Shown piece after piece: positions 55,001 through 58,000 of a stretch of 64,000 nucleotides of DNA; the stretch's first letter is position 1; every line of letters starts with the position of its first letter. The DNA comes from Escherichia coli (GTDB lineage: Bacteria; Pseudomonadota; Gammaproteobacteria; Enterobacterales; Enterobacteriaceae). The position numbers were made by a program. The stretch lies in the NCBI RefSeq assembly GCF_017348835.2, contig NZ_CP072312.1; one strand, 5' to 3'.

Positions 55001-58000
55001 TAAGCGCATTCGTGGCGATAGCCCACATATGCGGCCTTCGATGTGTAGGTTTTGGTAAATACCAGGTGGCCAACCACGCTGAATCCCGCATTTTTCCAGG
55101 CGGCCATAAAGCGATCGACGCGGTTCCAGCCATAGAAGCTCACCATCAGCGCATCTTTTTTCAGCACTCGGTACATTTCATTACAGGCCGGTTGCAGCCA
55201 TTCATCGGTTTTATCGCCGGCGATGGTACGCCCCTGACGGTCACGGAAACCGACGAGATATGGCGGGTCGGTGAGGATGAAATCGACAGCATTGCCCGGA
55301 AACGTGGCCATAACACGCACGCAGTCACCCTGGATAAAACGGGACATAACAGCACTCCTTCTCTTACAGAGGGCACCGGGAGGGCGCCCCTGTGGCGCCC
55401 GTTCCCCGCTGCCTGTGGGCTGTTCACCGCGTCCGGTAACGGGTCAGGCCGACCGTGGAATACCGCAGCCGTCGTCTTTTTGACGGCGAGGATATGCCGC
55501 GAAAGCGGCTTGAAGGGCGTTCATCAGAAAAGGGCGACGGGCTGGCGTACACTGTCACCAACGCCAGCCGGGAGCGGTAAAAGCGCCCGTCCCGTGCCCG
55601 GCCGGACGCGGGACACTGACCACAGGCAGCGTTCCTGCCGCGCCGCGTCAGCCGGCGCAGTAAAAAGAGGAGCCCGGCGACATCCTTTACCGGAAAAGAA
55701 ACGGGCGGTTGCCCGCCCGTCTCCGTCATACTTCATCCTCCATAATGCGCCACATTGTCGACTATCCACGCCGGTCCGGTGACTTCCGGCAGCTCATCGT
55801 CATCTGTCGGGGAAGACCATTCAAGTTCCCCCCCACAGCACATCAACGAGCTCTCCACGCTCATACAACTGCCAGCCACAGAAATCACAGCCCTGTTCGG
55901 CATACCAGTGCTCCAGTGTGCAACTGAAACGGCGGCTTAATTCTGCAATAACGTCGCTTTCTGGCTGACACCACGGCGTGTCAAAATCCACCTGAATGAA
56001 GTTGTCTCTCTGACTGCTGATATTCACCTCATACCCCACAGGCCACTTCACGCCATACTGTTCGGTATACCAGTGATATGCAGAAGGAACACCGTTCAGA
56101 ACACCACCGTTAAAGCCGTTTACTTCAACATCCAGGCGGCTGGGCATCAAAATGGGGTACCGTGGTTTCAGCTGAAGTCGGTGAAATTTTCGGAGCCGGT
56201 CATCGTCTTCTCCAGTAATTACCCGCTATACGCATCGATGTCGAACAGGGTCATGGTTCATCTGGAGGCGCTGGCACCGCGCGTTGAGCAGTACTCGATT
56301 GACGAGATGTTTCTCGACGTGCGAGGTATTGACAGCTGCATCGATTTCGAGGATTTCGACCAGCAGCTGCGTGAACACGTCAGGAACGGGACTGGCCTGA
56401 CTATCGGTGTCGGAATGGGGCCAACCAAAACGTTGGCAAAGTCAACACAATGGGCTTCCAAAGAGTGGCCACAGTTTGGTGGCGTGCTGGCATTAACGCC
56501 GGACAATATCCGCCGTGCGGAAAAACTGCTGTCACTGCAGCTGGCGCACGAACCCTGTATTTATCAGGAAGAACTTCAATGTGGTTCTGGAGAGAAAGGT
56601 CCGGGAACTCAATGGAGAAAGCTGTATTTCACTGGAGGAAGAACCGCCCCCCCAAACAGCAGATAGTCTGCAGCCGGTCCTTTAGAGAGCGCGTCACGAC
56701 ATATGAGGCCATGCGCTAGGCCATCTGTCGGTACGCTGAGCGTGCAGCTGAAAAGCTGCGGGGCGAGTGTCAGTTCTGCAGACATATCGCCATTTTTTTG
56801 AAGACGTCACCGTTCGCAGTAAACGAACCGTATTACGGGAATGTGGCCAGTGAAAAACTGCTCATCCCCACGCAGGATACACGGGATATCATTGCCGCTG
56901 CCGTTAGAATTCTGGACAGGATATGGGTGGATGGCCATCGATATGCAAAAGCGGGTTGCATACTCAACGATTTCACTCCTACCGGGGTTTCGCATTTGAA
57001 CCTTTTCGATGATACTCAGCCCCGGAGCAACAGTAACCAGCCGTTGAAAGTCGTGGACAGCATTAACCATTCCGGTCTGGGGAAAGTGTGGTTTGCAGGC
57101 CGAGGCATTGCGCCAGAATGGCAGATAAAGCGTGAGATGTCGTCACCGGCATACACTACCCGCTGGAACGAACTACCGGTCGCCAGACTTTGAAAAAAAG
57201 AAATTCATGGTGATTTCACTATGAAAGAATTAAAAAAAATACTTTATATTCAGTAAAATAAGCATGAAAAAAGCGTGGTGAAAATTGCAAAAAAAGGATG
57301 CCATTTGGCATCCTGATATTAACCCGGCATATCCTATTCAGGCAGTTTTCTTAGAATGTTTTTTATAGCCTCATCGATTTCTAACTGCACCTCATTAGAT
57401 ATGCGGGAGAACTCATAAACAACAAGACGCTTTCTGGGGTCAGTCTTCTTTCTGGCAAATTGGTTACGATCAGAAAACTCTTTCAACTTCTCAGTTTCCA
57501 CTGTTTTTACAGGCCGGTCTGTAAGCAATTTTCCTTCAGACCTGAAGACCGCCAGGATTTTGCTTTTCTCAATTGTTGGATAGTCAGGTAAAGCCATCAG
57601 TTTTTGGCGAACTCTATCCATAAACTCTTCCACTGACATTTTTTTGTTGGTTGCCTTTTCAGACAGTTTCAACAAAAATTGATAGTCCGACAGCGAAATA
57701 TCATTGATTATCGGAAATACAGAGATCATTTCATCCGGTACTGATGCCGCCTGAAATGCGCGTGTTACTTTTGCCGGAGAGATGCTTTCAGCCTGAGCGA
57801 TCTCTTCTTTTGTCATACTTGCCCCATAAGTAACTTCAAGGCGTTTTCCTAGTTCTCGGAGGCTATGCTCTCTGGCTGTCTGTATATCTTTTGCAAGTTG
57901 TCTCGCGTCGGCAATATCAATACTGTCTTTTGTAACCAGTATTTCGAATTTTACGTTGTTATAGATACAGGCAGCACGACGACGCGTACCGTCTAATACT

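Follow-up and report, generated by a model that had tools for sequence, protein, structure and literature searches.

Does the segment that separates the leading region from the partition genes of this Escherichia coli plasmid encode a DNA polymerase, the debris of one, or an intact gene that only appears broken in the assembly? The DNA analyzed here, hereafter the window, is a stretch of 64 000 nucleotides of contig NZ_CP072312.1 (assembly GCF_017348835.2) that belongs to an IncFIB plasmid of the pO103 type from enterohemorrhagic E. coli (EHEC). A first-pass annotation of the raw sequence placed at 55821-57193 a decayed umuC-like gene without its 5' end, a nonfunctional remnant of mutagenic repair. 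This general assessment holds up in the present analysis, and we put the probability at about 95% that the locus is a dead umuC pseudogene that originated via a deletion that truncated a DUF1281 gene and removed umuD, and was then hit by further mutations.

Identity and extent of the umuC remnant

The remnant occupies positions 56137-57193 on the plus strand and derives from umuC, the gene for the catalytic subunit of DNA polymerase V (Pol V), a Y-family polymerase. Its identity follows from tblastn, DNA alignments and Pfam searches and, independently, from the pseudogene call in the PGAP annotation. The tblastn mapping recommended in the first pass was run over the whole window with the intact 424-aa plasmid UmuC of Salmonella pSA20044414.1 (L005) as the query, chosen among the closest fully intact relatives found in the DNA search. 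Three collinear pieces were recovered between 56142 and 57193, with a joint E-value of 2e-174: amino acids 48-184 at 56142-56552 in frame 3, amino acids 209-245 at 56545-56655 in frame 1, and amino acids 243-424 at 56648-57193 in frame 2, which are the three frames noted in the first pass. With the DNA alignments included, the remnant comprises codons 46-424 of the intact plasmid gene, read successively in frames 1, 3, 1 and 2, and the original stop codon, TGA, is still in place at 57191-57193. The pieces match the Pfam profiles IMS (8.6e-18, only at positions 61-144 of 148), IMS_C (2.2e-15) and DUF4113 (2.5e-17), that is, homology extends over the palm/fingers, little-finger and C-terminal domains. 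The loss of the 5' end is real but amounts to 45 codons rather than the approximately 70 originally estimated, homology starting at codon 46 (56137), and the left part of the initially delimited span, 55821-56136, belongs to the DUF1281 gene.

The ~420-codon ORF expected of a umuC gene, start codon included, is not preserved, the longest open piece being 197 aa. The Asp-Glu pair of the SIDE motif, the catalytic carboxylates D101/E102 of UmuC, is retained (GAC GAG, 56301-56306, plus strand; ..QYSIDEMFLD.. in the translated ORF, aligned with the L005 protein). The first catalytic aspartate is Asp6, in the N-terminal DVNxFYAS motif; this motif (amino acids 5-13 of the L005 protein) lies within the lost codons 1-45, leaving the set of catalytic carboxylates incomplete.

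RefSeq labels the locus as a pseudogene, 'DinB/UmuC family translesion DNA polymerase; frameshifted; internal stop', so that the existence of a umuC pseudogene is already on public record, and what is new here is only the mapping of lesions and junction at base level. A literature search on the umuC remnant of pO103 returned nothing specific to the locus and mostly unrelated matches to the UM-UC cancer cell lines. In the RefSeq annotation, minus-strand leading-region genes (antirestriction, DUF1380, DNA methylase) at the left end are followed by a 101-aa hypothetical ORF, the DUF1281 pseudogene, the umuC pseudogene, the minus-strand genes for ParB and ParA, a Phd/RelE toxin-antitoxin pair and RepB.

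The junction with DUF1281 and its origin

A minus-strand ORF does stand in the place of the lost 5' end, as had been observed in the first pass, but it is not an intact gene: what survives there is the C-terminal portion of a DUF1281 gene that is both truncated and frameshifted. The ORF (55821-56150) carries DUF1281 and DUF1281_C according to Pfam, and the pseudogene as a whole (55733-56146, minus strand) retains the C-terminal ~139 codons of a gene for a protein of ~300 aa, as judged from the Pfam matches, from the intact 300-aa genes of two related plasmids (L006 and L007), and from the PGAP note on this locus ('frameshifted; incomplete; missing N-terminus'). Of the full-length protein, only profile positions 143-177 of 177 and DUF1281_C remain, the N-terminal half being cut off at the same junction as the 5' end of umuC. 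In a three-way alignment of the window with a DUF1281 parent (L006) and two umuC parents (L005 and NZ_CP130116.1, or L003), DUF1281 homology ends at 56139-56146 and umuC homology begins at 56136/7, at the CGG of codon 46; the tetranucleotide GCGG at 56136-56139 is common to both parents, a 4-nt microhomology at the point of truncation. A search for repeats or insertion sequence (IS) ends at the junction yielded only short chance repeats, so that the truncation in the window lineage is not the scar of an IS insertion.

Many plasmids elsewhere carry umuC in intact form, chiefly those of Klebsiella, Salmonella and Enterobacter, and the wider group of plasmid umuDC-type operons includes samAB of pSLT, mucAB of pKM101 and impCAB. 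Over the retained parts, the remnant shows 76-87% nucleotide and 80-89% amino acid identity to the intact Pol V operons of IncF plasmids such as Salmonella pSA20044414.1, Enterobacter pHD7405-NDM and NZ_CP081679.1 (L013), and like these, it is convergent with the adjoining parB-parA genes and lies near the methylase block of the leading region. Unlike the intact operons, it has neither umuD nor a LexA box, is missing codons 1-45 and amino acids 185-210, and carries three frameshifts and a stop. The complete arrangement is found in L013, a plasmid of E. coli 0H15, in which genes for the methylase, a hypothetical protein, DUF1281 (311 aa) and a small ORF, all on the minus strand, are followed by a LexA box, umuD and umuC (424 aa) on the plus strand and then by parB and parA on the minus strand. 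The segment missing from the window corresponds to L013 4760-6364, about 1.6 kb. Given that the L013 DUF1281 gene is only 65% identical to that of the window, this plasmid demonstrates the layout rather than the direct ancestor. A separate DUF1281::umuC fusion with other end points, which keeps only amino acids 397-424 of UmuC, is present in CP057209.1 (L011), and because two different fusions of the same genes exist, DUF1281 and umuC must have been neighbors in the ancestor.

One deletion between divergent genes would account for the truncation of DUF1281 and for the loss of the promoter region, of umuD and of 45 umuC codons. The ancestral IncF-type plasmid would have carried DUF1281 on the minus strand and a divergent, LexA-controlled umuD-umuC operon on the plus strand, between the leading region and P1-like parBA; a deletion of ~1.6 kb, resolved at GCGG, would have eliminated the 5' half of DUF1281, the intergenic SOS box and promoter, umuD and the first 45 codons of umuC. 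The main competing explanation is that the junction was formed not by an internal deletion but by recombination of two plasmids, one contributing an F-like leading region and the other a umuDC-parBA backbone. On the DUF1281 side of the junction, identity is 94-96% with many F-like plasmids devoid of umuC, on the umuC side the nearest matches are IncFIB/FIC plasmids, and two plasmids, L004 and L005, lack DUF1281 entirely, all of which is compatible with such an exchange. However, L013 keeps DUF1281 and umuDC as intact divergent neighbors, and with the independent fusion of L011 in evidence, the simplest explanation is that deletions occurred repeatedly within one common ancestral arrangement. 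Recombination between plasmids therefore appears unlikely although it is the strongest of the competitors, and deletion is the origin that we favor.

Two features of the intact relatives deserve separate mention. A gene for an SRAP/YedK-like protein (SOS-response-associated peptidase) is located directly upstream of umuD-umuC in L004 (3579-4250), L005 (3579-4250) and L014 (4958-5629), forming with them a three-gene cluster of DNA damage tolerance; in L013, DUF1281 is found at the SRAP position. In addition, L013 contains at 7587-7880, between the intact umuC and parB, an extra C-terminal fragment of ParB and a second DUF4113 (umuC 3') fragment, and this duplicated umuC-end/parB-end segment adds to the evidence for a hot spot of rearrangement at the boundary.

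Loss of umuD and of SOS control

In a Pol V operon, umuD, which encodes a self-cleaving peptidase of the S24 family, is expected just upstream of umuC, overlapping its start; in L004, L005 and L013 it is present at this place, and a canonical LexA box, CTGTATATAAAAACAG, precedes it by 35 nt. The first-pass remark that no umuD partner is visible is borne out by tblastn, which, at E<=1e-3, detects neither a UmuD nor an SRAP homolog across the 64 kb of the window. The SOS box of Pol V operons is missing as well, no CTGT-N8-ACAG being found near the remnant. Two CTG-N10-CAG matches, at 55893 and 56058, were rejected as SOS boxes: they have no ACAG half-site and lie inside the DUF1281 coding sequence. 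A scan of the plus strand for sigma-70-like promoters found none in 55300-57200, the only two sites reported both being downstream of the gene, and the remnant is probably not expressed. An Rfam search of 54000-59600 for non-coding RNAs gave only a chance match (16.9 bits vs a gathering score of 200).

Six lesions and their probable order

Multiple alignment of the window with four to five relatives, supplemented by pairwise DNA alignments, resolves six lesions, so the count of three frames, although correct, understated the damage, which also includes a 26-codon deletion and an in-frame TAG. Apart from the truncation at GCGG, all of these are found within the plus-strand coding sequence. A -1 frameshift lies in codon 52, where GGN became GG in a G run (56155-56157, with the change placed at 56156/7). 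A deletion of 78 nt (26 codons) between two 9-nt direct repeats, CACTGCAGC, took out amino acids 185-210 (PVDEIWGVGRRISKKL...) and left a single repeat copy as a scar at 56533-56541, both copies being present in L005, at 5384 and 5462. Immediately downstream, a -2 frameshift changed GGCGCGCGCG to GGCGCACG in a (GC)n run (56543-56550). A +1 frameshift turned a run of six C into seven (56647-56653), and a nonsense codon, TAG, evident both in the translation and in the multiple alignment, stands at 56717-56719 where all relatives have CAG (Gln). With codons 1-45 and amino acids 185-210 gone, three frameshifts and one stop, the remnant cannot encode a polymerase.

The relative age of the lesions can be gleaned from a sister plasmid, CP099079.1 (L008), which is 98% identical and has the same parBA and Phd-RelE neighbors. 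It shares with the window the junction and the -1 and -2 frameshifts, lacks the 78-nt deletion, the +1 frameshift and the TAG, and carries a TGG to TGA change of its own. From this subset of lesions, we infer that the truncation and two frameshifts came first, whereas the other three lesions were acquired later, in the pO103 lineage. Under this scenario, the umuC remainder, without a start or a promoter, would have drifted, initially through the -1 and -2 frameshifts and subsequently, in the pO103 lineage, through slippage between the 9-nt repeats, the extra C and the CAG to TAG substitution. The remnant thus provides a small but clean example of how lesions can be dated by means of sister plasmids.

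The dN/dS values are 0.05-0.09 in comparisons with intact genes; among disrupted copies, they are 0.34 between the window and L008 (7 synonymous and 8 non-synonymous differences, small counts) and 0.57 between L003 and NZ_CP012492.1 (L009). The direction of this change fits relaxed constraint and is suggestive, although with 15-20 substitutions it is statistically not strong; as a dating tool, dN/dS was discarded, there being too few substitutions among close relatives for it to be decisive.

Repeated loss of umuC next to the same partition module

The window lineage is only one of several in which umuC has been disrupted beside the same parBA module. In L009, ISEc23 (IS66 family) is inserted at approximately codon 45-59 and half of umuD has been lost to IS21; in L003, umuC is truncated at codon 38 by a segment that bears an integrase; and each of these two copies has nonsense codons of its own. 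Three other plasmids retain only 3' stumps: amino acids 300-424 (372 nt) in NZ_CP027549.1 (L012), amino acids 365-424 (177 nt) in NZ_CP122927.1 (L010) and, in L011, the 83 nt of umuC retained in the fusion described above. In all cases, the same gene at the same location has been inactivated from its 5' end and has kept the end that faces parB; the events are independent, with different break points. Altogether, at least six independent losses of umuC are discernible (the DUF1281 deletion, the IS66-family insertion, the integrase-segment truncation and the three stumps), all 5'-sided and none extending across the parB-proximal spacer, the deletions all ending before it. E. coli hosts carry a chromosomal umuDC, and the pattern of losses suggests that plasmid Pol V is dispensable, or costly, in such hosts. 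Taken by itself, the umuC remnant is a case of ordinary gene decay; it is the comparative pattern of loss that is modestly useful. The status of the window copy as a pseudogene is evident from the six lesions, the loss of the promoter and LexA box, and this nested series of further-deleted copies, the rise in dN/dS being suggestive only.

Could a part of the remnant still be of use? An ORF of 131 codons with a TTG start, 56798-57193, is open and encompasses the end of the little-finger domain together with DUF4113. If expressed, its product could serve as a decoy that binds UmuD', RecA or the beta-clamp and modulates the chromosomal Pol V. Older PGAP runs called the locus a 'DUF4113 domain-containing protein', and this C-terminal part, with 87% amino acid identity to intact UmuC, is better conserved than any other piece of the remnant. 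Nevertheless, current PGAP annotation flags the entire feature as a pseudogene, there is no promoter-like site upstream on the plus strand, and the start codon is TTG. Furthermore, the ORF is not conserved as a unit: it is cut at differing points in L010 (amino acids 365-424 left) and L011 (amino acids 397-424 left), and there is a TAA inside it in L009. Expression of such a decoy is thus extremely improbable. The specific version of this idea, in which the ORF would be translated from read-through transcripts and would titrate UmuD', RecA* or the beta-clamp, damping chromosomal Pol V, is very unlikely too. As a weaker possibility, the final ~80 nt of umuC may have been retained as part of the parS partition site.

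The least credible explanation, that the frame changes stem from mistakes in sequencing or assembly and the actual umuC ORF is intact, possibly with a 5' truncation, has next to no chance of being correct: although two lesions are found in error-prone contexts, namely, the C7 homopolymer and the (GC)n run, neither the 5' truncation nor the 78-nt deletion nor the TAG is an error type, L008 carries a consistent subset of the lesions, and the frame changes recur identically in more than 40 independent assemblies, including that of the Sanger-sequenced pO103. Specifically, the 2.2 kb of window 55400-57600 are 100% identical in >40 plasmid records (O103:H2, O121 and other E. coli) produced in different laboratories, on different platforms and in different years, with the same neighboring genes and no difference in the feature itself, and 56100-57200 is an exact substring of both pO103 (NC_013354) and NZ_AP038985.1 (L001), a Japanese O103:H2 plasmid record. 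The single intact ORF that, according to the first-pass annotation, re-sequencing might have recovered is accordingly not seen in these independently sequenced plasmids, and a dead gene remains the reading of choice.

The parB-side spacer

The genes for ParB (57334-58296) and ParA (58293-59549), both on the minus strand and identified from the annotation and from relatives, flank umuC on the right in all related plasmids that were examined. A spacer of 140 nt (57194-57333), delimited by alignment and a terminator scan, separates the stop codon of umuC from that of parB and contains the terminator hairpin of parB (57295-57314, minus strand). Two blocks within the spacer, TGGTGATTTCAC and TGGTGAAAA, are conserved between lineages whose identity elsewhere is only ~78%; judging from its position and from motif resemblance, the spacer is a likely candidate for a parS centromere of the P1 type. 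Within the 3' end of umuC itself, TCGCCA at 57180-57185 resembles box B of P1 parS; being absent from the intact relatives, it is probably a chance occurrence. The umuC remnant persists as spacer DNA beside parB and the presumed parS.

In L008, an insertion of ~1.2 kb (~6262-7462), unannotated in the PLSDB table, parts the stop codon of parB from its terminator. It has duplicated CTGATAT flanks and looks like an IS element, and it separates the candidate parS from parB with no apparent loss of the module.

Minor observations on the leading region

Decay in this part of the plasmid appears to be general rather than limited to umuC: in the first 13 473 nt (13.5 kb) of L001, corresponding approximately to window 49400-62870, 7 of the 22 annotated features are pseudogenes (DUF932, two hypothetical ORFs, DUF1380, DUF1281, umuC and a transposase). 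Positions 55405-55635, just ahead of the DNA methylase gene (minus strand), comprise a G+C-rich, imperfect long hairpin of ~230 nt, with arms at 55407-55436 and 55602-55631. Its fold in single-stranded DNA is much more stable than those of shuffled sequences (z = -5.2 and -5.6), and it is conserved at 97-99% as a separate module in F-like plasmids without an adjacent DUF1281; we presume that it resembles single-strand promoters of the Frpo/ssi type. The 101-aa hypothetical ORF called by PGAP at 55424-55729 overlies this hairpin, has no Pfam match and may be spurious.
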